This document shows positions 24,294 through 47,275 of a DNA stretch of 64,000 nt, one piece after another. Position 1 is the stretch's first letter. Every line of letters starts with the position of its first letter. The stretch covers positions 12,916 to 76,915 of IMG/VR virus record IMGVR_UViG_3300032155_000026; one strand, written 5' to 3'. A program made the translations under genes and the position numbers. Source of the DNA: a virus. Its lineage: Duplodnaviria; Heunggongvirae; Uroviricota; Caudoviricetes. The notes under the pieces are model-generated. The model made no database searches and had not been told where the DNA came from. It saw nothing but the letters and a program-made list of their open reading frames with translations.

Positions 24294-24321
24294 TTGACGC
24301 ACACGCGCCTTTTGGTACTCT
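24294..24321 (+). promoter_or_regulatory. promoter module A (TTGACG-N16-TACTCT), 6 nt before the conserved ATGGAAATAGTTCAACAAA start
   Basis: One of four homologous copies (26805, 32321, 47190). GATTTTG motif upstream. Confidence 0.55.
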
Positions 24322-24327
24322 CAACTC

Positions 24328-24531
24328 ATGGAAATAGTTCAACAAAATGGGGAGAACCAGATGGACCTTACCACCGCTTCCCGGATCATAGGCCTGCCCC
24401 ACCCGTTCCTGGTGGATGACGCCCGGAGAGCCCGGCTGAACCTGTACGCACAGAACATGCTGGACCGCCCGGCCAGGCGCACCCTCCGCGAGTTGGTGGC
24501 GCTGGACCTCTACATTTCCGCAACTTCCTAG
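24328..24531 (+). CDS. small hypothetical protein (MEIVQQ...), candidate leaderless start
   Basis: ATG at the predicted transcription start. Alternative SD-dependent start at 24361. Confidence 0.35.
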   Translation: MEIVQQNGENQMDLTTASRIIGLPHPFLVDDARRARLNLYAQNMLDRPARRTLRELVALDLYISATS

Positions 24532-24545
24532 AGGAGGCTGAGAGA

Positions 24546-24815
24546 GTGGCCGACAACCTGACAGAGATCGCTGACCAGCTGGAAGAGCTCTCCGCGGACG
24601 CGTACAACATCCTGAACCAGATGAGGGATTTGTTGAGGGGCGTTCCGGCTGACATCCGGCGCAGGGCCAAGGCGTACTGGCTGGCGCACATCGACTGCGC
24701 CCTGGAGAACAGGGACGGGTGCCTGGGGAAGTCGATGACCACCCTGGCTGACACGGTGGCCGAGCTCCGGGAGCTGCTGAAGGAGAGGGTGAATGATCAC
24801 CGCACGCGAGGCTGA
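24546..24815 (+). CDS. hypothetical protein
   Basis: GTG after GAGGAGG. Helical acidic protein. Confidence 0.45.
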   Translation: MADNLTEIADQLEELSADAYNILNQMRDLLRGVPADIRRRAKAYWLAHIDCALENRDGCLGKSMTTLADTVAELRELLKERVNDHRTRG

Positions 24816-25029
24816 CAGCTTTCTGCAGAGTGCCGCCTATGACATGGCGGATGGCGACGAGCGAGAGGCCGACCGCCTGTACAACGACATCGAGGTTATG
24901 GGCGACCTCCTCGCAACCAGAGTAGGGAGCGGCCGTGTCGCCGACGAGACCCTGCTGGTCCTGATGGAGAGTCGGGTCAGCCCAGTGGCCGAGGCGGCCG
25001 CGTACATTCTTGAACGCAGAACCGGGTAG
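24793..25029 (+). CDS. hypothetical protein
   Basis: ATG after GAGGG. Overlaps the upstream gene. Confidence 0.4.
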   Translation: MITAREADSFLQSAAYDMADGDEREADRLYNDIEVMGDLLATRVGSGRVADETLLVLMESRVSPVAEAAAYILERRTG

Positions 25030-25031
25030 TC

Positions 25032-25049
25032 GGTGCAATCGATTGCACC
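25032..25049. repeat. palindrome copy 7 (perfect)
   Basis: Intergenic between 25029 and 25065. Confidence 0.9.
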
Positions 25050-25064
25050 AGATAGGAGGAAGGC

Positions 25065-25268
25065 GTGAGTCAGGTGAGAAGGGTCCGCAGGTATGAGTAT
25101 GACTGCCAGGGGTTCGAGACCGGGCTGGCCGGCCTGCGGGAAGAGCGCCACGGGTGGTTGATGCGGACCGACGAGGTCGAGGAGTTGCTCCTGGCCGTAG
25201 TTAACGGAGAGATGTCCGCGGCAGACGCCCTGCTGGCGGTGCGGGACACGAGGAGGGCCGTGCGATGA
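25065..25268 (+). CDS. hypothetical protein
   Basis: GTG after GGAGGAAGG. Confidence 0.4.
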   Translation: MSQVRRVRRYEYDCQGFETGLAGLREERHGWLMRTDEVEELLLAVVNGEMSAADALLAVRDTRRAVR

Positions 25269-25561
25269 AGATCGATCTGAAGGACGTCAGCCTGCCGTGG
25301 CAGGTGAAGGGTTCGAACTACGCCTTTGTCCGCCTGGGTCCGCTTGGTAAACTGGTGGTGAAGGAATGCATCCGTATCCGTGGTGAGGAGCCCGTGTTCC
25401 AGATGTGGGTGTTCGGCGAGGAGCTGAAGATCAAGGCGAGCAGCGGGTTCAAGGTCGCGTCTCTGGGAGACGGGATGCGCGTGGCCGAGGCGTCTGCGCG
25501 TGCGGGGATCAAGGAGGCCTACCGGATCGTGATGGAAGAGTTCCCCGAACCGCTGGACTGA
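25265..25561 (+). CDS. hypothetical protein
   Basis: ATGA overlap with the upstream gene. Confidence 0.45.
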   Translation: MKIDLKDVSLPWQVKGSNYAFVRLGPLGKLVVKECIRIRGEEPVFQMWVFGEELKIKASSGFKVASLGDGMRVAEASARAGIKEAYRIVMEEFPEPLD

Positions 25562-25564
25562 CCG

Positions 25565-25951
25565 ATGGTTGAAAAATGGATTCGCCCTGGGCCGACCCTG
25601 GCTGGTTGTGAGACCGTCAGGGTGACCGACGACGTGCCGCCCGCTTGGCTCATTTGCAAGCGGGCGCTTCTGCCGAGCCGTGAGATGCTGCTGAGCTGGG
25701 GCGCGCTCATGATCTGCACCGAGGGGTACAGGTGTCCGAAGAGTGGTTACTGGGTCCCCGAGGGCAGCTTCAGGATGTTCGACGGCCGCGAGATCGGCCT
25801 GGTGACAGAGATGACCGTCGAACAGAGCGGGTTTCCGATCGTGCTCCTCTCCACCACGGTCCGGCGGGTCTTTCTGCGCGTGTCGTGGATCTGCGTGGTG
25901 GTCGACTGGACCGGCTACGGTTTCTGCTTCCCGAGGAGGTTGCGGCTGTGA
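25565..25951 (+). CDS. LPP-motif paralog family member P1
   Basis: ALLPSREMLLSWGALM motif. Ends PRRLRL*, encoded by AGGAGGTTGCGGCTGTGA. Confidence 0.5.
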   Translation: MVEKWIRPGPTLAGCETVRVTDDVPPAWLICKRALLPSREMLLSWGALMICTEGYRCPKSGYWVPEGSFRMFDGREIGLVTEMTVEQSGFPIVLLSTTVRRVFLRVSWICVVVDWTGYGFCFPRRLRL

Positions 25952-26166
25952 CGTACGTGCTCAACGGGAACCGCGTCCGGTTTTTGCAGGAGTCCGAATA
26001 CAGTGATTCACTGGTAGGGCAGGTGGTTCACCTGCCGCCCATGGAGTTGCTGCGGGATACAGACCGGCTGCGTGTTGGGCGGGCTGGTCGTGTCTGGCCT
26101 GTCCGGTTACCGGGATTCTTGTTGTTGAGCGCATGTTCGTTTTCTTTGACGGTCGCGGAACGGTAG
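25948..26166 (+). CDS. small hypothetical protein
   Basis: GTG overlapping the P1 stop (GTGA); junction RBS AGGAGG. Confidence 0.35.
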   Translation: MTYVLNGNRVRFLQESEYSDSLVGQVVHLPPMELLRDTDRLRVGRAGRVWPVRLPGFLLLSACSFSLTVAER

Positions 26167-26366
26167 TGACAGCCACCCGTAGTGCTGGCGACGAGGTGCG
26201 AGCCGTGCGCCTTGAAGGCTGCGATCCGTGGTGGTTCTCCTGCAGGTGGTTGATGTTGAGAGCCTTGGCGATTCGAGTACAACCGCTAGACGTTGTGCCG
26301 GAGGGCCCGGTGGTGGCACCGGCGATTGAAATCGTGACTGAACCGGTCAGGAGGTTGCGTCTGTGA
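26133..26366 (+). CDS. small hypothetical protein ending VRRLRL
   Basis: Track ORF. 3' end AGGAGGTTGCGTCTGTGA identical in form to the 25934..25951 junction. Confidence 0.35.
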   Translation: MFVFFDGRGTVVTATRSAGDEVRAVRLEGCDPWWFSCRWLMLRALAIRVQPLDVVPEGPVVAPAIEIVTEPVRRLRL

Positions 26367-26776
26367 TTCGGACGGCCGCGTGCAAGCCCTCGGTGCAGTT
26401 TGTCACCAGAGAGTGGAAGGGCGTCGTCTACCACATGCTGGGGCCCAGAGGCACGGATGACAGGCGTTATATCAAGCTGCGCTGCTGGGTGCTGCCCCCG
26501 GTCGAGGCTCTGCTGTCCTGGGGGCTGGTGGTTAAGGCTGATGCGCCGCAGGCCGCCCTGACAGACTACGCTGTCGCTGAATCGCAGAGATGCTTGATCG
26601 TGCGAAACATGCTGCCGCTGTTTGACGGGAAGACACCGCGTGCGCTGCGAACAGTCGCGTCCTGGTCGTGCACGCTGCGCGGGAACGGGCTGGAGTCGCT
26701 GGTGGTCGAGTTGGCCTGGCTAGCCCGCGCGGCGCTCAGGCAACCGGTGCAGGCCTGCCGACGCTTACGCGTCTAA
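26363..26776 (+). CDS. LPP-motif paralog family member P2
   Basis: WVLPPVEALLSWGLVV motif. Ends CRRLRV*. Confidence 0.5.
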   Translation: MIRTAACKPSVQFVTREWKGVVYHMLGPRGTDDRRYIKLRCWVLPPVEALLSWGLVVKADAPQAALTDYAVAESQRCLIVRNMLPLFDGKTPRALRTVASWSCTLRGNGLESLVVELAWLARAALRQPVQACRRLRV

Positions 26777-26804
26777 TTATTTCTGATTTTAGAGACTTTT
26801 CGTG

Positions 26805-26832
26805 TTGTCGCCTGCGCGCCTTCTGCTATTAT
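26805..26832 (+). promoter_or_regulatory. promoter module B (TTGTCG-N16-TATTAT), 6 nt before conserved ATGGAAATAGTTCAACAAA
   Basis: Homologous to module A, including the upstream GATTTTAGAG. Confidence 0.5.
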
Positions 26833-26838
26833 CAAGGC

Positions 26839-26994
26839 ATGGAAATAGTTCAACAAAAGGAGCAGGCAATGACCGCCAACGTATGGGATTCCGTGGAAGA
26901 GTTCTTCGACGATCGTGGGTTCGACTTCGACTCCATTGAGGACGCCCGCGACCTGTTCGGGGATGCGGCTGTGCGTGCCTACCTGGAGGCCTAG
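26839..26994 (+). CDS. small acidic protein (MEIVQQ... or SD-dependent MTANVWD from 26869)
   Basis: Conserved ATG 26839 is in frame with the AAAGGAGC-ATG 26869 start. Confidence 0.4.
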   Translation: MEIVQQKEQAMTANVWDSVEEFFDDRGFDFDSIEDARDLFGDAAVRAYLEA

Positions 26995-27276
26995 ATGAGC
27001 GTCCGGGAAGGGAGAGTCCGGGTGGCGGTCGTTTCCGCCAGCAAGCTCGGCTCGGCGTGCTGGAGCGCGCTCCGGGCAGTCGGTGGGTGCCACCAATGCG
27101 ACAGAGTCAGGGGCTGCGCCCTTCCGGAGGCCGTCCGTGGCCGGCTGCTGTTGGCAGAGCGTGCCTTCGACAGGCATCTGGAAGAGAGCGAACGCAAGCG
27201 TGTTCGACTGGCCGCTGAGTTGGCGTCTGCCAAAGAGGCCGTGGGAGGGCTGAGCGATGACCGTGGACAGATTTGA
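26995..27276 (+). CDS. hypothetical protein
   Basis: ATGA overlap with the upstream stop. Confidence 0.4.
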   Translation: MSVREGRVRVAVVSASKLGSACWSALRAVGGCHQCDRVRGCALPEAVRGRLLLAERAFDRHLEESERKRVRLAAELASAKEAVGGLSDDRGQI

Positions 27277-27586
27277 CGAGTTCGAGCTGTGGGCGAAGTC
27301 GGCGGTTCCGACCCGCTGGCTGACCCTGGGAGCGCCGGACGCCAAGGAGATCGTGGCCGCGGTCGAGAAACGACTGGCCGAGAAAAGCGATGAGATAAGG
27401 GCCCTGAAGCTGGCGCATGACCGACAGTCGGCGGCAGACCGAAAGCGCCTCGAAAGGATGGACGCGCGCCTTTGCGAGATGATCGACTGCGCGAGCTGGT
27501 CGAGTCGTTTGAGACGCTTGAGCACCTCGAATCCCAGACCGGGCAGGCGCGCGTTCGAGTGTCGTTTGACCTCGACTGCTACATGA
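27257..27586 (+). CDS. hypothetical protein, possibly frameshifted
   Basis: N-terminal 75 aa are protein-like. The frame-1 continuation 27421..27645 (LRELVESFETLEHL...) reads better than this frame's tail. Confidence 0.3.
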   Translation: MTVDRFDEFELWAKSAVPTRWLTLGAPDAKEIVAAVEKRLAEKSDEIRALKLAHDRQSAADRKRLERMDARLCEMIDCASWSSRLRRLSTSNPRPGRRAFECRLTSTAT

Positions 27587-27634
27587 GGCTCGGCGACGTG
27601 CTCGTGCGGATGTCGTCCGATGGAGGTGCTGAAG

Positions 27635-27811
27635 ATGATCGTTGACATTCACGATGTGTGTCCGTCCATGCGTTCCCTGGCCGAGACTGCCAGACGCGCG
27701 TACCTGGCTGGGTGCTCACGGATCGCGGCGGCGCTCCTGAAAGCTGGACACGCTCGCTACGGTGCCGTGTTCGCGGCGGCGTACTGGAACGCCAAGCGGC
27801 AGCTGGGGTAG
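27635..27811 (+). CDS. small hypothetical protein
   Basis: ATG 27635 after GGAGGTG (track start 27620). Confidence 0.35.
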   Translation: MIVDIHDVCPSMRSLAETARRAYLAGCSRIAAALLKAGHARYGAVFAAAYWNAKRQLG

Positions 27812-27813
27812 CC

Positions 27814-27831
27814 CGTGCAATCGATTGCACC
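27814..27831. repeat. palindrome copy 8 (perfect 16 core)
   Basis: Directly after the TAG stop at 27811. Confidence 0.9.
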
Positions 27832-28258
27832 GGAAGGTTGGCCGTCTAGGTGGGTTGAGTGTGAAGACGCCAGATGGCTCATGCCTGACTGCGACCCGCG
27901 CGACGTTGGGCAGCTTACGCGACTGGCAGACTTCCTCGAAACGCGCCGAGCGCTTTGGCTCCCGCCACTCGACTTGTTGCTCAAGACCAGAGGGCTGGTC
28001 CGGCGCGGCGAAACGGCATACTTTGCGCGCGCGCTTGGTGACGACTCCCTGGTCGACTCCATGCTTCCGTGGCTGTCTAGCAGGGAGGGCGTGTACATTG
28101 AGGAACGCATCCCGCGCCCCAAGGGGCCCGCTTTCGTGCTGCACGGGGACCAGGGTGAGTTTTTCTGGTATCCGGAGTGGTTCGCGCTCGCCCGCGAAGA
28201 CCTGCGGATGCGGGCTGACGTGGACAGGTTGCGCGCGGTCAGAAAGTTGAGACTCTGA
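27815..28258 (+). CDS. LPP-motif paralog family member P3 (start uncertain)
   Basis: ALWLPPLDLLLKTRG motif; ends VRKLRL*. The track start lies inside the palindrome, so the real start may be 27869 or 27881. Confidence 0.45.
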   Translation: MQSIAPEGWPSRWVECEDARWLMPDCDPRDVGQLTRLADFLETRRALWLPPLDLLLKTRGLVRRGETAYFARALGDDSLVDSMLPWLSSREGVYIEERIPRPKGPAFVLHGDQGEFFWYPEWFALAREDLRMRADVDRLRAVRKLRL

Positions 28259-28276
28259 CCCGCTACTGGAGGACGA

Positions 28277-28495
28277 ATGATTCGACAGACGTACGTGGTC
28301 ACGTTCGGTTTTGGGCAAATCCTGTCCGGATGCTATACCAAGGTGGTGGCATCCTCCAGGGACAAGGCCCAGGAGAGGGTCATTGACGAGTATGGCAGAC
28401 TGTGGTCGATGCTGTATGATTCCGAAGAGGCTGCTGGATGCGCGGAATACAACCTGAAGTTCGTGCCGTTCGGCACGCCCAATGGGAGGAGATGA
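28277..28495 (+). CDS. hypothetical protein
   Basis: GGAGGACGA-ATG; compact globular-looking 72 aa. Confidence 0.5.
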   Translation: MIRQTYVVTFGFGQILSGCYTKVVASSRDKAQERVIDEYGRLWSMLYDSEEAAGCAEYNLKFVPFGTPNGRR

Positions 28496-28496
28496 C

Positions 28497-29096
28497 ATGC
28501 GAGAGGGGCAGATGCTGCATGTGGACGCGGAGATACGCACGCAGGGCCCGTGCTTTATGGAGGTCGCAGGCCGGATCACCAAGGTTGAGACCGTGATGGA
28601 TCTGGTCGACGTCGTGCTGGCCTCGCGTGTCGGCGACGCGACGTGGAGGAAGCCGTTTGAAATGCGCGCTGAGGTTATGCGCGACCTTCTCGGGGTCCTG
28701 GAGGGGGGAGCGGCCGGGCGCCCGGAGACGTGGTTCCTCTCTGCCAGGGACTGCTACGAGGCGCAGCAGGAGCGCATGTGGCACCTGGCCAGGGCGTTCA
28801 GCAACCGCGGCTTTTCCGTGACCTGGCACGACGGGGAGGTTTTCTGGGCCAGTGTCCCGAAGTGGAAGGGCTGGATGTGGTTCCCGTCGTGCGGTCCGAA
28901 GGAGGCGACGGCTACCGTGTATGACATCGAGCAGGCGGCGCAGGCCGGAAGGAAGGGCATCCGGCAGCTGCTCCTGAACCTCAAGCGGGCCGTCGGCGAG
29001 GGGCCCGAGTTCGAGAAGGGGCTGCGCGCTACCGCGCGGGTGGTGGAATCCGTCCGCCGTGCGCTCGCGGACGCGGCACAGCCCATCGGGGGATAG
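28497..29096 (+). CDS. hypothetical protein
   Basis: ATG 28497 after GGGAGGAG, immediately after the upstream stop. Confidence 0.5.
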   Translation: MREGQMLHVDAEIRTQGPCFMEVAGRITKVETVMDLVDVVLASRVGDATWRKPFEMRAEVMRDLLGVLEGGAAGRPETWFLSARDCYEAQQERMWHLARAFSNRGFSVTWHDGEVFWASVPKWKGWMWFPSCGPKEATATVYDIEQAAQAGRKGIRQLLLNLKRAVGEGPEFEKGLRATARVVESVRRALADAAQPIGG

Positions 29097-29098
29097 TC

Positions 29099-29548
29099 AT
29101 GCGTGTGCCGCGCGAACCGACGCCGACCCCGTGCCTGCGTGCGGTGCGCTGGGGTGAGGCAACCTACATGATGTTGGCGGGCCCGAACGTCATGCAAGTC
29201 ATCGTCCGCAAATGGCCGGTCCTCCTCGCGCCTGTCGAACTGCTCGTACACCTTGAGGTGGTGAAGCCGTACGGAGCGCTTGGATGGCGTTCGCGCCTCC
29301 AGACGGGAGGGCCGGGCTGCCTGCTCACGACATTCATGATCGCCGAGATGGCCTGCATCGTGCAGCGTCTCGAGTTGTTTGACGGTGAGGTAGGACATCT
29401 GCACACGCGGGGCGTGCTCGTGTACGGTCGCGCGCCGTCCGGCAGACTAAGCCTCTCTTGCGATTCCGACTGGTTCTATCTGGCCCCAGGGTGCTACTCT
29501 AACGAGCCGTTGCGCGTGACGGAGTCGACCAGGCGGCTGCGCGTGTAA
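29099..29548 (+). CDS. LPP-motif paralog family member P4
   Basis: WPVLLAPVELLVHLEVV motif; ends TRRLRV*. Confidence 0.5.
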   Translation: MRVPREPTPTPCLRAVRWGEATYMMLAGPNVMQVIVRKWPVLLAPVELLVHLEVVKPYGALGWRSRLQTGGPGCLLTTFMIAEMACIVQRLELFDGEVGHLHTRGVLVYGRAPSGRLSLSCDSDWFYLAPGCYSNEPLRVTESTRRLRV

Positions 29549-29563
29549 CTGGAGGTGGCGTTC

Positions 29564-30013
29564 ATGGAATGGGTTGCACTGCACAGGACGATGGTTGAGT
29601 TTGGGCTCCCCCTGGCGCTCTGCATAGCGGGATGGTGGTTCTTGTGGCCCCACCGAAGGAATCGCCTGGAGAGGCCAGAACCCGAGACGCTTGAGCAATG
29701 CAGGGCGCAGTTGGAGCGTATCGCGGCGGCGCCTGGCGATACTGAAGAAGACTGGGTGCTCTTCGTGGCGAAGGGCGGGACGCTGCATGCCCACGGAAAG
29801 GCTAACGCGCGGGTGCGTGCGATATTTCTGTGCGAGCTGCTGAGTGTCTGCGACCCGGCGGTCTGCGCGCTTGTGTTCTCCGAGCACGCGGGGCGGCAGA
29901 TCCAGGCCCGGCAATTCGAGGAGTTGATGACCGGGGCACCTGCCGAGGCGTCCCCGGATAAACCGACGGCTGCCCGGAAGGCGTGTCCGCAAGACAGACT
30001 GCTGCGGCTGTAA
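29564..30013 (+). CDS. LPP-motif paralog family member P5 (weaker)
   Basis: EFGLPLALCIAGWW; ends DRLLRL*. ATG 29564 after GGAGGTGG (track GTG 29555). Confidence 0.45.
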   Translation: MEWVALHRTMVEFGLPLALCIAGWWFLWPHRRNRLERPEPETLEQCRAQLERIAAAPGDTEEDWVLFVAKGGTLHAHGKANARVRAIFLCELLSVCDPAVCALVFSEHAGRQIQARQFEELMTGAPAEASPDKPTAARKACPQDRLLRL

Positions 30014-30061
30014 TTTGCTGGAACGGCGCCTGATGTTATTGTCAGACATGGAGGACGTGTA

Positions 30062-30490
30062 ATGCCGTTTGATCTTCCACCGTTCGATGGGCTGCTAACG
30101 GGACGCTGGAGTAGCGGCCCAACGCGGTTCCAGTGGATGCCTCGCAGCCTCGACGCGGTTGACTACGAACCCTTTGTGATGGACGCAGTGCGCCCTCGCG
30201 CTAAATGGGATCGTGCAGCCGTTGCCAGAGAGCTGCACGACATCAAAGAGCGCCTGCAGATGCTCGCCGAGCACGCCAGTCTGACGTCCCAGGATGGAGT
30301 GTCGTGGCAGTTCATCTACGGAGACGAGAACGACGCACAGATAATCGGCTTTGGCCATACCACGGCACGGGTGGCGCTCCTGCGCAGAGCGTGTCGTGTG
30401 CATCGTGGATTCCGCAGACTCTTACGCCGTGTCCTGCGCTTGGATAGCGCCGAGCGCGTCGAGGGAGGCTCGCGTGTTCTGCGACTCTGA
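30062..30490 (+). CDS. LPP-motif paralog family member P6
   Basis: MPFDLPPFDGLLTGRW N-terminus; ends SRVLRL*. Confidence 0.5.
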   Translation: MPFDLPPFDGLLTGRWSSGPTRFQWMPRSLDAVDYEPFVMDAVRPRAKWDRAAVARELHDIKERLQMLAEHASLTSQDGVSWQFIYGDENDAQIIGFGHTTARVALLRRACRVHRGFRRLLRRVLRLDSAERVEGGSRVLRL

Positions 30491-30941
30491 TTTTCCTGAG
30501 TCGTTCAACCACGACGACGTGCGAAATGCGTACAAGGCGTGGCCCACGACGTGGGTGCGTGCCAGGTCAGGCCCAGCCGTGCTGATGCTCCGCAGACCTG
30601 TTCTGGTGACCGCGCGTGCTCTGCCAGTCGTACGGTTCTTGCCCCCGAAGGCCTGGCTTCTGGAAACCGGGCGGCTGCGCAGCGATATGATTACCTTGTG
30701 GAACTTCATGTATGCCAGGCGGGACGCGACTCGGTGCTGTGTCATGACCCTCGTCGACGTTGTGAGCGCTGATCGCGTGTATTGGAATTCTATCAACGAC
30801 GACCAGCGGCCTTTTTTGTTACGACCATCGTTGGGTCGGGCTGGCGTGGCGGGCGTATGTTCGGACGGACTCCCTGGCGCGGGTTCGGCGACTGCGTCTG
30901 TAGTGCAATCGATTGCACCAGACCGTGCCAGGAAGCTATGA
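30474..30941 (+). CDS. LPP-motif paralog family member P7
   Basis: GTG 30474 after GGGAGG. VVRFLPPKAWLLETGRL motif. C-terminus runs into palindrome #9. Confidence 0.45.
   Translation: MFCDSDFPESFNHDDVRNAYKAWPTTWVRARSGPAVLMLRRPVLVTARALPVVRFLPPKAWLLETGRLRSDMITLWNFMYARRDATRCCVMTLVDVVSADRVYWNSINDDQRPFLLRPSLGRAGVAGVCSDGLPGAGSATASVVQSIAPDRARKL
30902..30919. repeat. palindrome copy 9
   Basis: At the 3' end of P7, before gene 30966. Confidence 0.9.
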
Positions 30942-30965
30942 TGAAGAAAAAAGAGGTTTGACCAG

Positions 30966-32170: not shown

Positions 32171-32320
32171 GCGCACACATTTGGCGTCTCCAGAGTTTTC
32201 GAGATCCAGGCCCTATAATCCTCTGTGAGACAGGCGAATTGCTTTTCCTGGGCGGGCCGCTCCACTGGGATTTCGAGCGCCCGCGCGTTCAAAAAATATT
32301 GATTTTGCGAGATTCTACTG

Positions 32321-32348
32321 TTGACGTACCGGTGCCTCCTGGTACACT
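32321..32348 (+). promoter_or_regulatory. promoter module C (TTGACG-N16-TACACT), 6 nt before conserved ATGGGAATCATTCAACAAA
   Basis: Near-identical to module A over about 90 nt (ttcaaaaaatNTNgattttgNgag...ttgacg). Confidence 0.55.
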
Positions 32349-32354
32349 GAAGTT

Positions 32355-32663
32355 ATGGGAATCATTCAACAAATGGAGGAAATCATGGAACCGCTGAAGT
32401 GCCCCCACTGCCAGAAGCCCATCCCGGAAGAGGCCCTGCGTGAGGAACCCGCCAACGTGGTCGAGTTCCGTGGCGCGCTGCTGCCGATCTCCACCACGAG
32501 CGCCCTGTGGTGCTGCGGAGGAGACATACACATGCGCATCGAGATGGTGGACGGGACGCCCACCGTCACCGAGGTGTACCCGGTGCCGGATGAGCTGTCG
32601 CTGCCCGCGTCCGAAGAGGCGCTGATGACCAAGCTCGGACTGACCTACGAGGATTTCCAGTGA
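32355..32663 (+). CDS. zinc-ribbon protein (CPHC...CC); alternative SD start 32385
   Basis: Conserved ATG in frame. GGAGGAAATC-ATG at 32385. Confidence 0.5.
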   Translation: MGIIQQMEEIMEPLKCPHCQKPIPEEALREEPANVVEFRGALLPISTTSALWCCGGDIHMRIEMVDGTPTVTEVYPVPDELSLPASEEALMTKLGLTYEDFQ

Positions 32664-39486: not shown

Positions 39487-39563
39487 CGGGGTGTAGGTCA
39501 GCCTGGAAGACCGCCTGCTTTGGGAGCAGGACGCCGGAGGTTCAAATCCTCTCGCCCCGACCA
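39487..39563 (+). tRNA. tRNA-Pro (anticodon UGG)
   Basis: Cloverleaf folded by hand. 7-bp acceptor stem with one G-U, D-stem GGTC/GACC, anticodon stem CCTGC/GCAGG, loop TTTGGGA. T-arm GGAGG-TTCAAAT-CCTCT; discriminator A plus CCA. Confidence 0.85.
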
Positions 39564-39982: not shown

Positions 39983-40002
39983 CCGCAAGAGAAGGAGGGC
40001 TT

Positions 40003-40460: not shown

Positions 40461-41307
40461 GATCCTGAGCCTCTGCATCCTGGCGCTCCTGCTGCTGGCC
40501 CTGGGGGCCTGCTCCCGTGTCGAGCCCGGCTACGTCGGCGTGAAGGTCAACCTGCTCGGCGGCGCCAAGGGCGTGGACCACGAGGTTCTCGGCACCGGTC
40601 GCTACTGGATCGGCTTCAACGAGCAACTGTTCCTGTTCCCGGTGTTCACGCAGCAGCACGTCTGGACCAAGGACAAGACCGAAGGGAGTCCGACCGACGA
40701 GTCCATGACCTTCCAGACCTCCGAGGGCCTGTCCGTGAACACCGACCTCGGCATCGCCTACAAGATCAGGCCGGATATGGTCGCCGTCGTGTTCCAGAAG
40801 TACCGCAAGGGCGTGGAAGAAATCACCAGCGTGTACCTGCGGAACATGGTGCGCGACGCGTTCAACAGCGCAGCGTCCACGCGCAAGGTCGAGTCCGTGT
40901 ACGGGGCCGGAAGGGCCGAGCTCCTGGCCGAGGTCGAGCGGCTGGTCCGTGCCCAGGCCGATCCCATCGGCATCGAGGTCGAGCGCATCTGGTGGGTGAA
41001 CGAGCTGCGACTGCCGGGCGCGGTGATCGCGCAGATCAACGGGAAGATCGCGGCCACGCAGGAGGCCGAGAAGCGCGAGAACGAAGTCCGCATGGTCATG
41101 GCCGAGGCGAGCAAGGCCAGGGAGAAGGCTCGCGGCGAGGCTGACGCCATTCTGCTGCGTGCCAAGGCCGAGGCCGACGCGAACCTCATGGTCGCGAAGT
41201 CGCTGACCCCGGAACTGGTCCACTACAGAACCATCGAGCGCTGGTCGGGTCAGTTGCCCCAGGTCACCGGGAGCGGGGTGCCGTTGATCAACCTCGGGCA
41301 GAAGTAA
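40453..41307 (+). CDS. SPFH/band-7 (prohibitin/HflKC-like) lipoprotein
   Basis: Lipobox LALGAC. SPFH domain pattern (VGVKVNLLGG...GRYWIGFNEQLFLFPVFTQQ), coiled-coil C-terminus. Confidence 0.7.
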   Translation: MRKILSLCILALLLLALGACSRVEPGYVGVKVNLLGGAKGVDHEVLGTGRYWIGFNEQLFLFPVFTQQHVWTKDKTEGSPTDESMTFQTSEGLSVNTDLGIAYKIRPDMVAVVFQKYRKGVEEITSVYLRNMVRDAFNSAASTRKVESVYGAGRAELLAEVERLVRAQADPIGIEVERIWWVNELRLPGAVIAQINGKIAATQEAEKRENEVRMVMAEASKAREKARGEADAILLRAKAEADANLMVAKSLTPELVHYRTIERWSGQLPQVTGSGVPLINLGQK

Positions 41308-41328
41308 CGCGCCGCGGCGCACATGGAG

Positions 41329-41352
41329 GCCGGTGCAATCGATTGCACCGGC
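41329..41352. repeat. palindrome copy 13, 24-bp perfect, with U-tract (terminator)
   Basis: After the SPFH gene. Confidence 0.9.
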
Positions 41353-41364
41353 TTCTTTGTTTGT
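41329..41364 (+). terminator. rho-independent terminator built on the 24-bp palindrome copy
   Basis: GCCGGTGCAATCGATTGCACCGGC followed by TTCTTTGTTTGT. Confidence 0.7.
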
Positions 41365-41414
41365 ACGCACCCTGGCCGCCGTGGTAGACTTAACGCAAAG
41401 TCCGGAGGGCATAC

Positions 41415-41798
41415 ATGCTGAGCGAACACACTGTCGAGAATTTCAACACGCTGGTCAGAGCGGCTGCCAATGGAGACGTGGCGTTGCTGGATGCCTATGA
41501 CGTCACGCTGGGGCGCGCACAGCCCGTCATAGCAGCAGCCACCAGGGAAGACTCCGGCGAGGTGACGTTCGTGCCGTTCGCGCTGCTCCTCGACGAGAAC
41601 CCCTACGTGAGGCTGCGCCCGCCGGCCGTGGGAACCGGTCAGCCCTATGAAGTTGAGTGTGCCGCCTGCAAGGACCGAGGGTTCCTGATAGTGAATAACT
41701 CTGGGCGTCTTCGGGTGGCCCGGTGCGCGGTCTGTGCCATGTTCGATTCCGACGGCGTGGCGGAACAGGCCGTGCTGGCCTCGCTGGCCGACTTTTGA
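41415..41798 (+). CDS. hypothetical protein
   Basis: GGAGGGCATAC-ATG. Confidence 0.5.
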   Translation: MLSEHTVENFNTLVRAAANGDVALLDAYDVTLGRAQPVIAAATREDSGEVTFVPFALLLDENPYVRLRPPAVGTGQPYEVECAACKDRGFLIVNNSGRLRVARCAVCAMFDSDGVAEQAVLASLADF

Positions 41799-41808
41799 GG
41801 ATTGCGCG

Positions 41809-42084
41809 ATGGACATCGGCGAACTGCTCGACGGGTACCAGGACAAGGCTGGCCGCACCACGATCCTCCGCAAGGGTGTGGTGGTCGCCACGACCGAGCG
41901 TGCCATCCTCTTTTTCGATGACGAGTCCGTGACCGAATTCTGGGTGTCCAGGAAGATGATCTGCGACTGGCGGTTCGTCGAGGACGGGACCAGACAGGGT
42001 CTGGCCGATCGTCACCTGGCGCGCAACGACGAGATTGAGCTGCTCATTCCGAAGTGGTTGGCACGGAAAGAAGGGTTGATCTGA
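41809..42084 (+). CDS. hypothetical protein
   Basis: ATG 41809 in track frame. Confidence 0.45.
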   Translation: MDIGELLDGYQDKAGRTTILRKGVVVATTERAILFFDDESVTEFWVSRKMICDWRFVEDGTRQGLADRHLARNDEIELLIPKWLARKEGLI

Positions 42085-42100
42085 GCAGCGGGCGTGCTCC

Positions 42101-42137
42101 AGAAAGAAAAAAGGGCCCCAGGTGCGAACTGGGGCCC
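42101..42137 (-). terminator. intrinsic-terminator-like hairpin oriented for minus-strand transcripts
   Basis: GGGCCCCAG-gtgcgaa-CTGGGGCCC with A-tract on the + side, i.e. a U-tract on the minus strand. Confidence 0.4.
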
Positions 42138-42260
42138 CGGCCGCGGGGAGGGCGTTTCCGCAGCCTGTGGTGGAGTGGAGGTGAGCCGCCACCACCCTGA
42201 TGGGACCCCCTCCCCGCTAAAACGTCAAGTACACGGGCGCTTTACGCCCGCCTTCGAGTT

Positions 42261-42288
42261 TTGAGCCCGCGAGCATCCCCTCTATACT
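42261..42288 (+). promoter_or_regulatory. sigma70-like promoter (TTGAGC-N16-TATACT), family-c repeat
   Basis: GAGTTTTGAGC context as at 24155. Confidence 0.45.
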
Positions 42289-42349
42289 GGTCTTGGTGGC
42301 CGAGGCTCCATACGAGGCCCTACGCACGCCTAGACAGGGTCTATGAGAC

Positions 42350-42697
42350 ATGTCTGATCAGGAGGAGATGATGGGAGAGCGTGACAAGCAAATTTCGGTC
42401 GTACTGTTGTGGGGAGAGGAGGCGTTCCGCATCCTCTGTGATCTGCGGCGTCGAACCGGCGAGGACCTGAAAAAGTTGGCAGCCGCCGTCGAGATCTACG
42501 TGTTCGACACGGAGGCCGCCGCAGAGGCATTTCGGCAGGGGATCTGCGCCGCGCGCACGCGAGAGGACGTCTTCGAGCTGTCGAGCGTGCAGTACAACTG
42601 CGTGGCGACAGCGTTGCGCGTGGCTGGCAGGAAGGGGGCGGTGCACAGGCAAGAGACCCTTCCGAGTGACATAGACCGCCTGCCCGTCGGCAGGTAG
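42350..42697 (+). CDS. hypothetical protein
   Basis: CAGGAGGAG-ATG. Confidence 0.5.
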   Translation: MSDQEEMMGERDKQISVVLLWGEEAFRILCDLRRRTGEDLKKLAAAVEIYVFDTEAAAEAFRQGICAARTREDVFELSSVQYNCVATALRVAGRKGAVHRQETLPSDIDRLPVGR

Positions 42698-42709
42698 GAA
42701 AAACCCCAC

Positions 42710-42738
42710 TTGCGCGTGGGAGGGGCGGTGTGTATAAA
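42710..42738 (+). promoter_or_regulatory. sigma70-like promoter (TTGCGC-N17-TATAAA)
   Basis: Immediately upstream of the MazG gene. ATG 42741 sits too close to the -10, so 42762 is preferred as the start. Confidence 0.45.
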
Positions 42739-42761
42739 ATATGCGCCGCGCGGAGAAGAAG

Positions 42762-43106
42762 ATGAGGCTGTCCGATTATCAGCGGGGCGCGACGGAGACA
42801 GCGGTGTACCCCGAACAGGGAAACGTCGGTGGGTTGATGTACGCCGCGCTCGGCTTGGCTGGGGAGGCTGGTGAGATCGCGAACAAGGTGAAGAAGGTGT
42901 TCCGTGACGGAGCGACCGACTCGCCGGACAAACGTGCGGAGCGCATGCTGGAGTTGCAGAAAGAGCTCGGGGACGTCCTGTGGTACGTGGCGGCGCTGGC
43001 CACCGAGCTCGGCTGCGACCTGGATGCGGTAGCGCGGGGGAATCTCCAGAAGCTGCAGTCGCGCAAGGCTCGCGGCGTGCTCGGGGGGAGCGGAGACGAC
43101 AGATGA
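42762..43106 (+). CDS. MazG-like nucleoside triphosphate pyrophosphohydrolase
   Basis: EAGEIANKVKK and ELGDVLWYVAALATELGCDLD helices typical of MazG/HisE all-alpha NTP-PPases. Confidence 0.7.
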   Translation: MRLSDYQRGATETAVYPEQGNVGGLMYAALGLAGEAGEIANKVKKVFRDGATDSPDKRAERMLELQKELGDVLWYVAALATELGCDLDAVARGNLQKLQSRKARGVLGGSGDDR

Positions 43107-43327
43107 CCAGACCAACAGATTTGAGTGCGCCTGCCGTATTGGGCACCGGCTGGGCGCGTGGCGCTGACAGACCGAACTGTGGGAAGTTCGGTGGCAAGCT
43201 GGTCGAGTTCAAAGAGGTCATGGTTGAACCCGACGTGTTCCGCTACACCGTGACGGTGGAAGTGTCGGCGCACACCGCAGACGCCACCACGTTCGTGCGG
43301 GCGCTACGTTCGATCGGCGTTCTCTAG
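43103..43327 (+). CDS. hypothetical protein
   Basis: ATGA overlap with the mazG-like stop. Confidence 0.4.
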   Translation: MTRPTDLSAPAVLGTGWARGADRPNCGKFGGKLVEFKEVMVEPDVFRYTVTVEVSAHTADATTFVRALRSIGVL

Positions 43328-43421
43328 CGGGGGGTGGGCGGCTCGAAAGGGTCGCCCACTTTTCGTTTTGTCCAGGCCCGCCCGCTGGGTATGCTGTCTT
43401 CAGAAACAAGGAGGTCCAACC

Positions 43422-43868
43422 ATGGAAGAGCATGAGCAGACGCCCGACCCCATGCGTGGAGTCGTCGCGATTGTCCAAGGGCAGGTAGCAGCGGAGCAGA
43501 AGATGCGGGCGCGCCACGCGGCGCTGCGCCGCCTGTCCGACATCCCGATGAGCGCGCAGCAGGCCTCGAAGGAAAAGAACCGACTGCTCGCCGCGGTCGC
43601 CGGCCTCGCAGAGCGCAAGCCCTTCAAGGTGGGCGACGTCGTGTGCTGGAAGCACGACTTGAAAAACTGCGTCGCTCCGCAGCTGGGGCAGCCCGCCGTG
43701 GTCGTTGAGGTTCTCGACCCGCCGCTGCGGATGACCGATCCTGGAATGCACGGGTCCCCGTACTACGGGGAGTGTCTCGACGTGCGTATCGCCCTGGTGC
43801 ACCCGGAAGACGAGATGATCACGGTGTACGCGGCCGAGTCCTGGCGTCTGCAGCACTGGGCCGACTGA
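43422..43868 (+). CDS. hypothetical protein
   Basis: AAGGAGGTCCAACC-ATG. Confidence 0.5.
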   Translation: MEEHEQTPDPMRGVVAIVQGQVAAEQKMRARHAALRRLSDIPMSAQQASKEKNRLLAAVAGLAERKPFKVGDVVCWKHDLKNCVAPQLGQPAVVVEVLDPPLRMTDPGMHGSPYYGECLDVRIALVHPEDEMITVYAAESWRLQHWAD

Positions 43869-43872
43869 TCGT

Positions 43873-43890
43873 GGTGCAACCGATTGCACT
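43873..43890. repeat. palindrome copy 14, variant
   Basis: After the stop at 43868. Confidence 0.8.
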
Positions 43891-43918
43891 GAAGGTCAAG
43901 AGTCTGGAGGAGCTGTCC

Positions 43919-44125
43919 ATGTGGAGCGACCCGCTGTTCTTGAAGGCGATGAAGGTCATGGACTCGTGCCGCACTGACGGGCAGCGCGCCGTGGCCGCCG
44001 AGTATGTCAGGAGGGCGTTCCTGAAAGCAACCGAGAGGGGAGACGGCTCGAAGGCCGCGCGGTTCTGGGCGCGGCAATTCGGGTGGGACGTGATCTCCCC
44101 AAGGAGTCGAAAATGCGCATCATAG
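43919..44125 (+). CDS. small hypothetical protein
   Basis: GGAGGAGCTGTCC-ATG; overlaps the thyX start. Confidence 0.35.
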   Translation: MWSDPLFLKAMKVMDSCRTDGQRAVAAEYVRRAFLKATERGDGSKAARFWARQFGWDVISPRSRKCAS

Positions 44126-44829
44126 ACCAGTCAGCAGAAGTCTTGTCCTTGGAGGATCTGAACCTGGTGGAGGTCGCGGCCAGAACCTGCTACAAATCGG
44201 AAGAGCGGGCTGGGATCAAGACGCTCGAACAGTTCGTGAAGGGGCTGCGTGTCCGCGGACACACGGCCATGCTCGAGTTCGCCACGGCCACGGTGCGTCT
44301 GGTCACGAACCGGGGCGTGACCCACGAACTGGTGCGTCACCGCCTTGCGTCGTACGCGCAGGAGTCGACCCGTTACTGCGATTATGGTGACGGGCACACG
44401 CGGTTCGTCAGGCCTGTGTGGTGCGATGCCACCGCCGCCGAGATGAACCAGGTGCTGGACCTCGCTGTTGCTGGGAAGGTTTCCGGCAACGACTTTCGCG
44501 TCCTCGCCGAGGAGCGCCTGATGGCGACGCCGGACGTGGAGTGGCTGCTCGCCTGCTGGTCGGCGGCCGCGTCCTATGAATACCTGCGCAAGGAGTGCGG
44601 CTGGCGTCCCGAGCAGGCCCGCGAAGTTCTGCCCAACGCGCTCAAGACCGAAATCGTGGTCAAGGCCAACCTGCGCGAGTGGCGGCACATCTTCTCCCTG
44701 CGCGTACTCGGGCGGACTGGCAGGCCCCACCCGCAGATCAGCGCCCTGCTGTCCCCGCTGCTCGAGAGATTCTCGCTCGAGTTTCCTGGGGTGTTCGACG
44801 ACCAGGTCGAGGCGCTCACGCGTCATTGA
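44113..44829 (+). CDS. thyX: flavin-dependent thymidylate synthase ThyX
   Basis: ThyX signature RHRLASYAQESTRY (RHR-x7-S). AAGGAG RBS. Size is right. Confidence 0.8.
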   Translation: MRIIDQSAEVLSLEDLNLVEVAARTCYKSEERAGIKTLEQFVKGLRVRGHTAMLEFATATVRLVTNRGVTHELVRHRLASYAQESTRYCDYGDGHTRFVRPVWCDATAAEMNQVLDLAVAGKVSGNDFRVLAEERLMATPDVEWLLACWSAAASYEYLRKECGWRPEQAREVLPNALKTEIVVKANLREWRHIFSLRVLGRTGRPHPQISALLSPLLERFSLEFPGVFDDQVEALTRH

Positions 44830-44851
44830 CGAGTCAGGACGCCGAGGTCCT

Positions 44852-45037
44852 ATGAGTGCGGGGCCCGGAGTCGCCATGAAAAAGAGTCAGCATGTTTTGA
44901 ACGAGCTGCATGTCTACTGCAGATTGAGGACGTGTAAAATGCCGAAATGGCTGGCGAAATGCCTGGCTGGGCTCTTCGGGTGGGTGACCGAGCCGCTCAT
45001 CTACAACAAGAAGCCGCGGCCGCCCCGCTGGGGGTAG
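44852..45037 (+). CDS. small basic hypothetical protein
   Basis: ATG 44852 in track frame; Cys pairs. Confidence 0.3.
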   Translation: MSAGPGVAMKKSQHVLNELHVYCRLRTCKMPKWLAKCLAGLFGWVTEPLIYNKKPRPPRWG

Positions 45038-45266
45038 CGTTGACAGCGAACGGTGCCTGGACTATGTGAAAGGCACTTCCCACAGTTGGTCTGTACCACA
45101 GGCCACGCGCCCACCTGGTGCCCGCCGGGTGGGCGCACTTCTTTGTCGGATAACGACGAGCATATTTGACGCCTCCAGAGTTTTTGGAGCGTTCCCCATC
45201 CCTTCCATAAGACCACCGACGTTCGTGTGAAAAGTCATCGCACCCAAGCGTTTACGAGAAACGCCT

Positions 45267-45284
45267 GGTGCAATCGATTGCAGC
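45267..45284. repeat. palindrome copy 15, variant ...GCAGc
   Basis: Intergenic, upstream of gene 45377. Confidence 0.8.
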
Positions 45285-45376
45285 GTCCGCGTGTTTTGTG
45301 CGCACGGCGTCTTGCGCTATCCTCTTCCCATCAAGAAAAACGTCGGTAGACCGACGACAGACAGCTGGGAGGACTT

Positions 45377-45961
45377 ATGGAAAGGGCCAAGCAGGACAGG
45401 ACGTGGCAGCTCATGATGGACCAGATACGCGGGCTCTGCGGAAGGATCGGCGTAGGGCCGATGGACCTCGCCACGCTGCGCGAGATCCACAAGCAGCGCT
45501 GGAATCTGGTCGACGTGGTGCGCGTGTTCCGCCCGCTGACCGCGGAAGAGACCGAGTTTCTCGCGTGGTACTGCGCGATTGACGAGTGGTGCCGCGAGCA
45601 GTGCGAGCGTCTGACCTCGATGGGGTACGAGGAGTACGGGCAGGTCGAGAACGGCTTCGAGGTCAGGCTGATCAACGACCTCGCTGTTACGCTGCTGGGG
45701 TTTTTCTGGGACTGTCTCATCGACATCCTCGAGCCGCGCGACGCCGTGGCGCTGTACGGTCCCGGAACCATTTCGTTCGGGTTCCTGCCCGACGGGCAGC
45801 TGGTCGTGGCTTTCCGGAAGCCGGATCGCGCGGCCGACGCGGCCGCAGCTGGCGCCGGCATGCCCGACGCGCGGGCGCTCGCTATTCTCGCGCGCGCTCT
45901 CGGCGTCGCGGCCAACGGGCCCTCCCAGGAGGAAGCCGACACCCCGCACATCGTGCACTAG
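45377..45961 (+). CDS. hypothetical protein
   Basis: Track ORF; globular composition. Confidence 0.55.
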   Translation: MERAKQDRTWQLMMDQIRGLCGRIGVGPMDLATLREIHKQRWNLVDVVRVFRPLTAEETEFLAWYCAIDEWCREQCERLTSMGYEEYGQVENGFEVRLINDLAVTLLGFFWDCLIDILEPRDAVALYGPGTISFGFLPDGQLVVAFRKPDRAADAAAAGAGMPDARALAILARALGVAANGPSQEEADTPHIVH

Positions 45962-45972
45962 GAGGGGGGCGC

Positions 45973-47132
45973 ATGCACGTAGCAGTTCTTGTCATCTACA
46001 ACCCGGAGGAGCAGTCGCTGGAAGACGCGCTGCTTCCCTTCCATGAATTCGAGTGCACGGGCAACGAAGCCTACGTCGAGGATATCGACGTTACTGAGGA
46101 GCGGCTGGCGGAATACGAGGCTAGCGAGGATGACATGATCCGGCTCGCCGACGGAACACTGGCCGACCCGTGGGATTGGGACGGCCCTGTTATCGTCAGG
46201 CCACGCCGGAAGAGATCGCGGCTATCGAGGACCGTACCTTTAAGGGCTCGTACCGACGTGCAGCCGACGACATACGTGTCGGGTGTACGCCCCCTGGCAG
46301 CGAGAAGGCCCGTTTCAAGACGTCCGATCGTCTGTCCTTCCTGGAGTGGCTCGAGGACACCTATGGCGCGGCGGTGGTGAGTCCTGGCGAGAAGCCGGAC
46401 ATCGCCAACGACGCCAAATACGGCTATGCGCGGGTCGACGGGGACGGAAACGTCTTGCAGGTGATCCGCAGGACAAACCCGAACTCTCGGTGGGACGGGT
46501 GGGCTCTCGGGGGCCGCTGGCCAGACATGCTGGTCGTCAAGATGAACGCGCCGCACGAGCGCGGCCGCAGCCTCGGACGTGCGCGCTCCGAACCAGATCC
46601 GGAGCTTGAGGAAGACGGCCGCATCGCCTGCGATGCAGCGCCGGCTGGCCAGATCGACTGGGAGTACATGCACCTGCTGGAGCGGCGCAAAGCGGAGCGT
46701 ACGTGGGACGCTGATCAGGAGCGACTGCGTGAGCAGGAGCGCAAGCTCCTTGCTGACGGGCAGACGTGGGAGTCCTTGATGGCTGCGGACTCTTCGGATG
46801 TGCGCGACAGGTTTGAGGGGGCCTGTCGCGCCTACGGTCTGACTCCCGACGTTGACGTCTACAGGCGTTGGCGGTTGAGCTGCACTGGTTTCTTCTGGAT
46901 TCTCGGCGTCAACCTCATGAAGTGCCCGACGAAGGAGAAGCTCGTGGCCGCGCAGGAGGTGCCCGTAACGTACGCGGTCGTCAAGGATGGCGAGTGGCAC
47001 ACGAAGAGCGCGGGCGGGTTGTTCGACCAGGACGCTGACGCCGCGTGCCGGGACTGGCAGGAGCGTTTTCAGGAGCTGCTCGAGGACGTCCCGCCTGACT
47101 GGATGATCGCAGTCGTTGACTGCCACTACTAA
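45973..47132 (+). pseudogene. hypothetical protein with apparent -1 frame change near 46170-46190 (or two overlapping genes)
   Basis: Frame-1 ORF from ATG 45973 is protein-like only to about 46188. Frame-0 ORF 46170..47132 is protein-like throughout but lacks an RBS. Confidence 0.35.
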
Positions 47133-47189
47133 GCGAACGGCCTCGGCAACGGGGCCGTTCCTTTTTTCAGCAATTCCGAGATTTTAGGT

Positions 47190-47217
47190 TTGACCACCGG
47201 CAGTCTTTTGCTACACT
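47190..47217 (+). promoter_or_regulatory. promoter module D (TTGACC-N16-TACACT), 6 nt before conserved ATGGAAATCATTCAACAAA
   Basis: Fourth copy of the module. Here the conserved ATG is out of frame with the downstream gene 47357. Confidence 0.5.
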
Positions 47218-47275
47218 GAAGTCATGGAAATCATTCAACAAATGACGGAATACCAGCCCCAGGCGAGAGACAGCC

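Follow-up and report, generated by a model that had tools for sequence, protein, structure and literature searches.

A repeated promoter cassette with a strictly conserved, predicted initial transcribed box in the putative early region of an uncultured tailed phage

The subject of this report is a repeated promoter module found in a window of 64,000 nucleotides (nt) of the tailed-phage record IMGVR_UViG_3300032155_000026, covering positions 12,916 to 76,915 of that record. Four paralogous copies of the module, here called A to D, all lie on the + strand and each ends in a 19-nt box of nearly invariant sequence, the boxes starting at positions 24328, 26839, 32355 and 47224. The modules are probably copies of a single early-promoter cassette that would be read by the housekeeping sigma70-type RNA polymerase of the host and that carries a shared non-coding leader or operator box. 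Promoter geometry places the predicted start of transcription on the first A of this box, so that the box would be transcribed first and make up the 5' terminus of the early mRNAs. The first gene of each unit would be translated from an ATG led by a Shine-Dalgarno (SD) sequence, which is found at +31 or +34 in the first three copies and at +134 in D, and the box itself may act as a shared non-coding recognition site for the common control of the early operons, either as a DNA operator spanning +1 to +19 or as a 5' RNA tag. Early-promoter cassettes are a known feature of phages; what appears unusual here is the very strict conservation of the initial transcribed box.

The same order of elements is found in every copy, namely phased A/T tracts at about -61, -50 and -39 (a phasing of ~11 bp), a -35 hexamer close to TTGACA, a 16-nt spacer, a -10 that has the form TAnnnT and is extended by TGn, a gap of 6 nt and then the box, ATGGAAAT..TTCAACAAA, which is preceded by a pyrimidine and opens with an A. 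Within the window the family is sharply delimited. The pattern ATGGAAATMRTTCAACAAA, with up to three mismatches allowed, has exactly four matches against 0.02 expected from shuffled sequences, each of the four deviating by at most one mismatch; a profile hidden Markov model of the 67-nt module retrieves only A to D (E 1e-19 to 1e-20, with the next best at E>1); and a repeat finder recovers the same four as one family of 77-99 nt. A promoter scan flags B, C and D with the 16-nt spacer and the TG motif, while A falls under its threshold for the sole reason that TACTCT matches three of the six positions of the -10. An initial annotation of this DNA, made from the letters alone, had already placed the four modules at these positions, as the pattern scan and profile search now bear out, and its -35 and -10 hexamers, 16-nt spacers and 6-nt gap to an ATG are all correct; the extended -10 was absent from it. 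It was also right that the proteins encoded by the first genes are mutually unrelated, and that translation from the ATG at the head of the box would give the N-termini MEIVQQ, MEIVQQ and MGIIQQ in A, B and C. Its figure of about 85% identity between A and C over about 90 nt is not reproduced, the value over 90 nt being 77%.

Module A (24260..24346) carries its -35, TTGACG, at 24294-24299 and TGG plus TACTCT at 24313-24321, followed by CAACTC and the box ATGGAAATAGTTCAACAAA (24328..24346), with the predicted +1 at 24328. A GGAG, 6 nt and an ATG at 24361 follow (24351..24363), from which the 56-aa first gene runs (24361-24531). Module B (26771..26857) has TTGTCG at 26805-26810, TGC plus TATTAT at 26824-26832, then CAAGGC and a box (26839..26857) identical to that of A; here GGAG, 6 nt and ATG 26869 (26859..26871) begin a 41-aa first gene (26869-26994) whose start is kept in the orthologue of a close relative. 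In module C (32287..32373) TTGACG lies at 32321-32326, TGG plus TACACT at 32340-32348, and GAAGTT leads into the box ATGGGAATCATTCAACAAA (32355..32373), with GGAG(G), 6 nt and ATG 32385 (32375..32387) opening a 92-aa first gene (32385-32663). Module D (47156..47242) combines TTGACC (47190-47195) with TGC plus TACACT (47209-47217), GAAGTC and the box ATGGAAATCATTCAACAAA (47224..47242); its GGAGG, 6 nt and ATG 47357 (47346..47359) start an 84-aa SWIM-finger first gene (47357-47611), and an intrinsic terminator on the + strand with an 11-bp stem and a T-tract (47135..47166) closes the upstream unit just before the module. All of these features are on the + strand.

The box stands out within the window by its conservation, since 16 of its 19 positions are invariant among the four copies, compared with 14 of 34 for the core promoter and 23 of 75 for the upstream part (binomial P 2e-6 to 2e-4), and by its composition, with a G+C content of 26-32% against 63% for the genome. 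Its consensus reads AT(G/C)G(A/G)AAT(N)(R)TTCAACAA(A/G). Cluster look-ups led to a close relative represented by three contigs (L077, L078 and L079) of the Logan assembly SRR24236065, whose terminase is at least 90% identical in protein and ~90% in DNA. L077 matches the window with 90% identity across the terminase, L078 with 90% over the head and tail genes and 73-85% over the small-gene region, and L079, which spans the region of C, with 73-86%. Three further copies come from this relative, an orthologue of C, an orthologue of D and a hybrid of A and B, to give seven copies in total.

Across the seven copies the promoter keeps TTG.C. of the -35, the TG of TGn and positions T1, A2 and T6 of the -10, with the middle positions of the -10 varying and the n of TGn running through all four bases (G, C, G, C, T, A, C). 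The spacer sequences diverge, and their length is 16 nt in all seven. The box is invariant at 14 of 19 positions (AT.G.AAT..TTCAACAA.), including every position from +11 to +18, and is thus more strictly conserved than the -35 and -10 hexamers. The DNA that flanks the cassettes is only 47-75% identical between window and relative, falling to 47-48% just upstream of cassette C. Such a pattern is the footprint expected of a sigma70-type promoter joined to a conserved initial transcribed box, an interpretation that the alignment strongly supports. The promoter reading of the initial annotation is likewise strongly supported, in that the seven copies conserve just the positions that a sigma70-type holoenzyme reads.

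What, then, is the role of a box that is predicted to be transcribed first and is conserved most? Copy D has a much longer leader, 133 nt from the predicted +1, with a minimum free energy of -52 kcal/mol over 147 nt. What follows the box (47243..47356, + strand) is strongly structured and contains a decayed SD remnant together with a copy of the 18-bp palindrome described below (47276-47293). The box has been kept in D and in the D orthologue although the adjoining SD and ATG have decayed, a persistence that is hard to square with a function confined to boosting a neighbouring start codon. A shared recognition site is preferred because none of the seven copies departs from the others at +11 to +18, where RNA polymerase is not known to recognise bases, and because D keeps the box without an adjoining start codon. 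Our leading suggestion, a tentative one that we rate at a little under an even chance, is that the box is an asymmetric promoter-proximal operator or 5' RNA tag for the joint control of the early operons. More speculatively, a candidate phage-encoded regulator of the box might jointly shut off all early operons, or else stabilise their mRNAs and promote their translation. Equally speculative is the idea that, where the AUG is kept, the box could also load 70S ribosomes and so combine part of a promoter, an operator and a ribosome entry site in one element. With the mechanism graded in this way, it is the fallback offered by the initial annotation, a conserved promoter-proximal regulatory or operator element, that the evidence favours.

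In the RNA the box is predicted to be single-stranded. It is unpaired in the folds of A and D, the first 73 nt of A and C fold worse than shuffled sequences, and the fold z-scores of the four copies are +1.6, -0.2, +1.4 and -0.6. An Rfam scan of the window at gathering thresholds returned tRNA-Pro only, with no family matching the box, and a search of the window for a complementary or antisense partner gave only chance 8-9-mers. Matches to consensus sites of the boxA, IHF, CRP, DnaA and LexA types were checked by eye and rejected, and the GGA sites of CsrA/RsmA were dropped as they leave +6 to +18 unexplained. Only the UUCAACAA of the box resembles the 3' part of rrn boxA.

The alternative that survives best, and which we regard as a real possibility short of being probable, dispenses with a trans-acting factor altogether. 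The box would then be purely cis-acting, serving as a downstream promoter region that sets open-complex stability and escape and, in the mRNA, as an unstructured AU-rich standby site or enhancer beside the SD. The module extends from about -68 to +19, near the established open-complex footprint of -55 to +20, and in A, B and C the unpaired box adjoins the SD. The initial transcribed sequence is known to modulate promoter output strongly and is part of the functional promoter (PMC5961368, PMC12464699), and a Pfam scan of 65 small proteins of the window, in keeping with this alternative, gave no regulator. The invariance of +11 to +18 nevertheless exceeds that of the -10 and -35 and goes beyond what AU-richness or escape kinetics would need, and the box also persists in D and in the D orthologue, away from any SD or ATG, which counts against this alternative.

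Several points weigh against the preferred reading of the box as a non-coding recognition site behind a host-read promoter. The position of +1 is taken from geometry alone, and a phage sigma factor instead of the host sigma70 may recognise the cassettes. The box is known from one phage lineage alone, over a shallow comparison. By inspection, clear dyad symmetry was not found in the box, which has only a weak and inconsistent GAA..TTC; the missing dyad would speak against an operator for a dimeric helix-turn-helix (HTH) repressor, and a protein binding an asymmetric site would remain compatible. No HTH, Cro-like or antiterminator domain was detected by Pfam in the 65 small window proteins, which are mostly ORFans and come from 64 kb of a 217-kb contig. 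As to the ATG, the single variant in which it is lost, described next, is known from one short-read assembly contig. Box position 9 varies as A, C or T, all of which encode Ile in the ATG frame; the leader indels observed all change the length by a net multiple of three; and the 5' end, which is unstructured, is rich in A and in CA. None of these last three is significant alone.

All three do count in favour of the proposal that the initial annotation had put first, that the mRNAs are leaderless with the ATG of the box as their conserved start. Here 70S initiation at a 5'-terminal AUG, in leaderless or dual-mode mRNAs, would be the selected function, giving N-terminally extended MEIVQQ.. isoforms of the A, B and C products; copy D would have a 56-codon upstream open reading frame (ORF) whose translation would open the structured leader. 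There are precedents, in that E. coli has SD-led mRNAs with functional 5'-terminal AUGs that bind ribosomes (PMC4965119) and the lambda cI mRNA is leaderless (PMC10491246). The box begins with ATG in six of the seven copies, exactly on the predicted +1, and the sequence of these six would fit an SD-led leader with a 5'-terminal AUG, the 5' end again being a matter of geometry only. The frame of the ATG is open, with no stop, through to the gene in A, B, C and the A/B hybrid. In the window, the distances from box ATG to gene ATG of 33, 30 and 30 nt in A, B and C, with 133 nt in D, bear out the initial claim that three of four copies are in frame; this is not significant, because the chance expectation is ~1/9 and the copies are paralogues that would have inherited the frame. 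The ORF of D (47224-47394), out of frame with the gene and overlapping the start of the SWIM-finger gene by 38 nt, is open with the same stop in the relative (L078 2534-2701) despite local indels.

Against this stands the orthologue of C, in which the box reads ATCGGAATCATTCAACAAA, with ATC for ATG. The remaining 18 positions of the box are unchanged, and so are the SD (CGGAGG), the ATG at +31 and the N-terminus MEPL.CP.CQKPIPEE that follows this ATG; no other in-frame start is available ahead of the SD-led one. In A, B, C and those copies of the relative that have an adjacent gene, the gap between GGAG and the downstream ATG is exactly 6 nt, as at most genes of this phage. The box ATG is out of frame with the gene in D and in the D orthologue, at distances of 133 and 130 nt, and the D leader has a G+C content at the three codon positions of 0.71/0.59/0.76 against 0.64/0.45/0.81 for genes, a pattern that is not coding-like. 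Read as codons, the box uses GAA, ATA, GTT and CAA, rare A/T-ending triplets with relative uses of 0.23, 0.09, 0.10 and 0.10. Codons ending in A or T make up only 18% of the total, and among 93 genes there is not one with six out of six such codons at positions 2-7. The linker codons between box and genuine ATG evolve freely, three of four differing in both orthologue pairs. Leaderless mRNAs are, moreover, rare in proteobacteria, the probable host group. Given the ATC orthologue, the SD-led ATGs, the frame of D, the rare codons and the free linker, a leaderless start as the reason for conservation is not supported and we consider it unlikely. We infer that translation of the first genes starts at the SD-led ATG and not at the box ATG. 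Some leaderless-type or dual-mode initiation at the 5'-terminal AUG may occur in the six ATG copies, yet it would not be what conserves the box. The D leader was also considered as an unusually conserved island and rejected as such, its identity of 84-89% to the relative being the same as that of the adjacent gene.

A third alternative, which appears very unlikely, invokes a sigma-dependent promoter-proximal pause. The -10-like hexamer AAT(N)(R)T at +6 to +11 would hold sigma70-bound RNA polymerase near +16 to +21, where a phage factor would modify it to read through downstream hairpins. Positions A2, T3 and T6 of this hexamer are kept in seven of seven copies, the variable box positions 9 and 10 coincide with the least important hexamer positions 4 and 5, and the operons are rich in hairpin palindromes, one of them terminator-like. 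The hexamer however lacks T1 and matches at only four of six positions; no Q-, N- or put-like component was found by Rfam or by Pfam among the 65 small proteins; boxB-like or put-like structure is absent, as is the boxA core GCUCUU; and the invariance of +12 to +18 is left unexplained.

The cassettes have a second property that is seen in the relative. There, the DNA after the terminase runs into a single A/B hybrid cassette and then into gene B1. The upstream part, -10 and discriminator of this hybrid are A-like, and its -35 and the start of its spacer are B-like. The 2.5 kb between box A and box B (24346-26838, compared with L077 2923-2953), with seven or eight small genes, is missing from the relative. 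Taken together, the hybrid cassette and the missing block show, from the comparison of the two genomes, that the cassettes are also junctions for the gain and loss of accessory-gene blocks, so that they appear to double as recombination boundaries for gene-block exchange. The same observations have a bearing on the weakest alternative, in which the box has no regulatory role of its own and is kept alike by gene conversion or recombination as a mosaic boundary; recombination within cassettes is evident from the hybrid, but conserved and diverged bases interleave at single-base resolution through the -35, TG, -10 and box in a manner unlike conversion tracts, 19 nt is short for homologous exchange and the orthologues keep the box while their flanks are 47-75% identical, which makes this explanation most improbable.

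A search for the box in relatives, as the initial annotation had proposed, succeeded in the three contigs of the close relative and uncovered no relatives elsewhere. Exact-pattern scans with the box, alone or with the -10, gave 18 loci in IMG/VR, 31 in JGI metagenomes and 24 in GTDB, all judged to be chance matches; these loci are mostly in low-GC DNA and the 24 GTDB loci are all in typically low-GC taxa. The five loci with a G+C content above 50% have no convincing tblastx homology to the window (one marginal, with short matches). Among 50,697 phage records, megablast of 10 kb gave no match, nor did module A in a sensitive blastn; a related-locus search with the window terminase found none, and exact look-ups of this terminase and of a 605-aa version of it matched no contig on record. 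Three more distant relatives, L074 to L076 (~50% terminase identity), have TGC-TATAnT promoters and AT-rich leaders after the terminase, in which neither the box nor a 5' ATG was found. The extended C1 protein was searched with HMMER and set aside as evidence, its sole match being the 92-aa gene call of the source itself and hence not independent.

The window has a G+C content of 63% with all genes on the + strand, and encodes a ribonucleotide reductase, an AAA ATPase, a large terminase (21862-24006), a tape-measure protein, a lambda-J-like tail fibre and a major capsid protein. For the terminase, identity is only 32-35% with the proteins of Rhodobacter phage RcZahn, Agrobacterium phage JP1 and Vibrio SIO-2-like phages. 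Stenotrophomonas DLP5/Summit and Rhizobium phages have the closest capsid proteins, and the tail-fibre matches listed are all from phages of proteobacteria, which makes a GC-rich proteobacterium the probable host. Some 25 kb of small ORFs separates the large terminase from the protease, capsid and tail genes (49402 onward). A long block of other genes likewise lies between terminase and head genes in RcZahn (PMC8601537). Modules A to D are confined to this 24-47 kb block, whose ~50 small genes are nearly all ORFans with no PHROG or Pfam family, a content typical of early, host-takeover regions.

The phage also encodes a sigma factor of 286 aa (4623-5483, + strand; Sigma70_r4 E 6e-15, Sigma70_r4_2 E 3e-12), and so does the distant relative L076. 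A second promoter-like family has six copies on the + strand (11438-11499, 24128-24189, 32172-32233, 42241-42294, 45157-45215 and 49235-49293; nhmmer E 1e-6 to 3e-11) with a consensus of approximately CATATTTGRCGYCTCCAGAGTTTTCGAG, ~10 nt and then CCYTATMAT, and no canonical -35 at 17 nt. Two of these lie ~130-180 nt upstream of cassettes A and C to form tandem promoters, one lies just before the head genes, and the family is conserved in the close relative. The phage sigma factor is a candidate for reading this family. With such a factor encoded by the phage and one copy of the second family ahead of the structural genes, the arrangement fits a change from early promoters served by the host sigma to later ones served by the phage sigma, the timing being deduced from position.

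A different repeat, a perfect 18-bp palindrome GGTGCAATCGATTGCACC, is present in 20 copies with up to three mismatches against 0.04 expected. The copies, 18 nt each, start at 1800, 4689, 7603, 9746, 14266, 18129, 25032, 27814, 30902, 32672, 34058, 38035, 41332, 43873, 45267, 47276, 49373, 53299, 58601 and 62348. About 15 are intergenic on a crude gene set, and a typical copy fills the space between a stop codon, at a distance of ~2 nt, and the SD of the next gene, 9-15 nt ahead of the start codon. Almost every copy has the same arms, TGCAA/TTGCA, with the central 4 nt and outer 2 nt varying. The palindrome is kept in the close relative; among the relatives with ~50% terminase identity, TTTGCAATCGATTGCAAA occurs in L075 and TTGCAAGCGATTGCA in L074 (seven copies each), and L076 carries a different palindrome, TTTTCCAACCGGTTGGAAAA, also just ahead of SDs. 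The sequence was not found described in the literature searched. It looks like a clade-wide intercistronic hairpin, or a site for a dimeric binder such as a ParB_N protein. A protein with a ParB N-terminal domain is encoded at 11522-12349 (+ strand, E 2e-10), with counterparts beside the terminase region in L074 and L075, and by analogy with KorB/ParB and their multi-copy sites it is a possible candidate for binding the dispersed palindromes.

Strong intrinsic terminators at 41325-41366, 45107-45146, 47135-47170 and 52655-52686 (+ strand) divide the region into units, the one at 41325 consisting of a palindrome copy followed by a T-tract. A tRNA-Pro (UGG) gene is located inside the small-gene region (39487-39563, + strand). 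A sugar-modification cluster at 15525-20395 (+ strand) comprises a glycosyltransferase, a GFO/IDH/MocA oxidoreductase, a DegT-type aminotransferase and a GDP-mannose 4,6-dehydratase-like enzyme, and may modify DNA or the host surface. The source, a JGI contig of 217,215 bp, is about twice the length of the 92-126-kb contigs of the more distant relatives, and could be a concatemer or a larger genome.

These results provide a map of the predicted early transcription units for an uncultured phage of ~100-217 kb that is without close sequenced relatives, and they supply what is predicted to be a compact, strong promoter-leader cassette for GC-rich proteobacteria. They also single out one short box whose mutation should reveal the co-regulation of early genes, and give a concrete case of promoter cassettes as junctions for the gain or loss of accessory blocks. 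A more general lesson is that an ATG lying on a predicted +1 says little about leaderless translation if it is not also kept in orthologues.

The closest parallels to the cassettes are the early promoters of T4 and T5, which are read by host sigma70. These are likewise multi-copy, with A/T tracts or an UP-like region, a -35, a TGn-extended -10 and a purine start, and have small takeover genes downstream. In T5 the transcribed region contributes to promoter strength. The cassettes differ in that 14 of the first 19 transcribed bases are invariant over seven copies, whereas the known downstream homologies of T5 and T4 are loose. As a putative operator, the box may be set beside the stoperators of mycobacteriophage L5, which are asymmetric multi-copy repressor sites, and the lac O1 operator, which spans +1 to +21. 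Like L5 stoperators and promoter-proximal operators, it is short, asymmetric, oriented, repeated at several units and in a position to block initiation or early elongation. Unlike the stoperators, it is present in only four copies per 64 kb, each at a fixed distance from a promoter, and no repressor candidate emerged from the Pfam scan.

An element that is transcribed at the start of an early operon and conserved there also recalls boxA/boxB of the lambdoid nut sites and the put sites of HK022 (PMC9378689), although the box lacks a hairpin, a two-stem put fold and the boxA core CGCUCUU(U)A and matches no Rfam family. The E. coli 5'-uAUG mRNAs (Beck, Fleming and Janssen 2016, PMC4965119) similarly have an AUG at the predicted 5' end followed by a leader, an SD and a downstream start, and their 5'-uAUGs are able to bind 70S ribosomes, in some cases with an effect on the downstream gene. 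In contrast to these mRNAs and to lambda cI (PMC10491246), the AUG of the box is not conserved, being ATC once, and the conserved part is mainly +6 to +18, as judged from sequence alone. Finally, the gene blocks resemble the morons and mosaic boundaries of tailed phages, where a promoter-led accessory block is similarly absent from a close relative with the junction inside a repeat. They differ from morons in that they hold many genes and are not each flanked by a promoter and a terminator; the boundary here is the promoter cassette itself.

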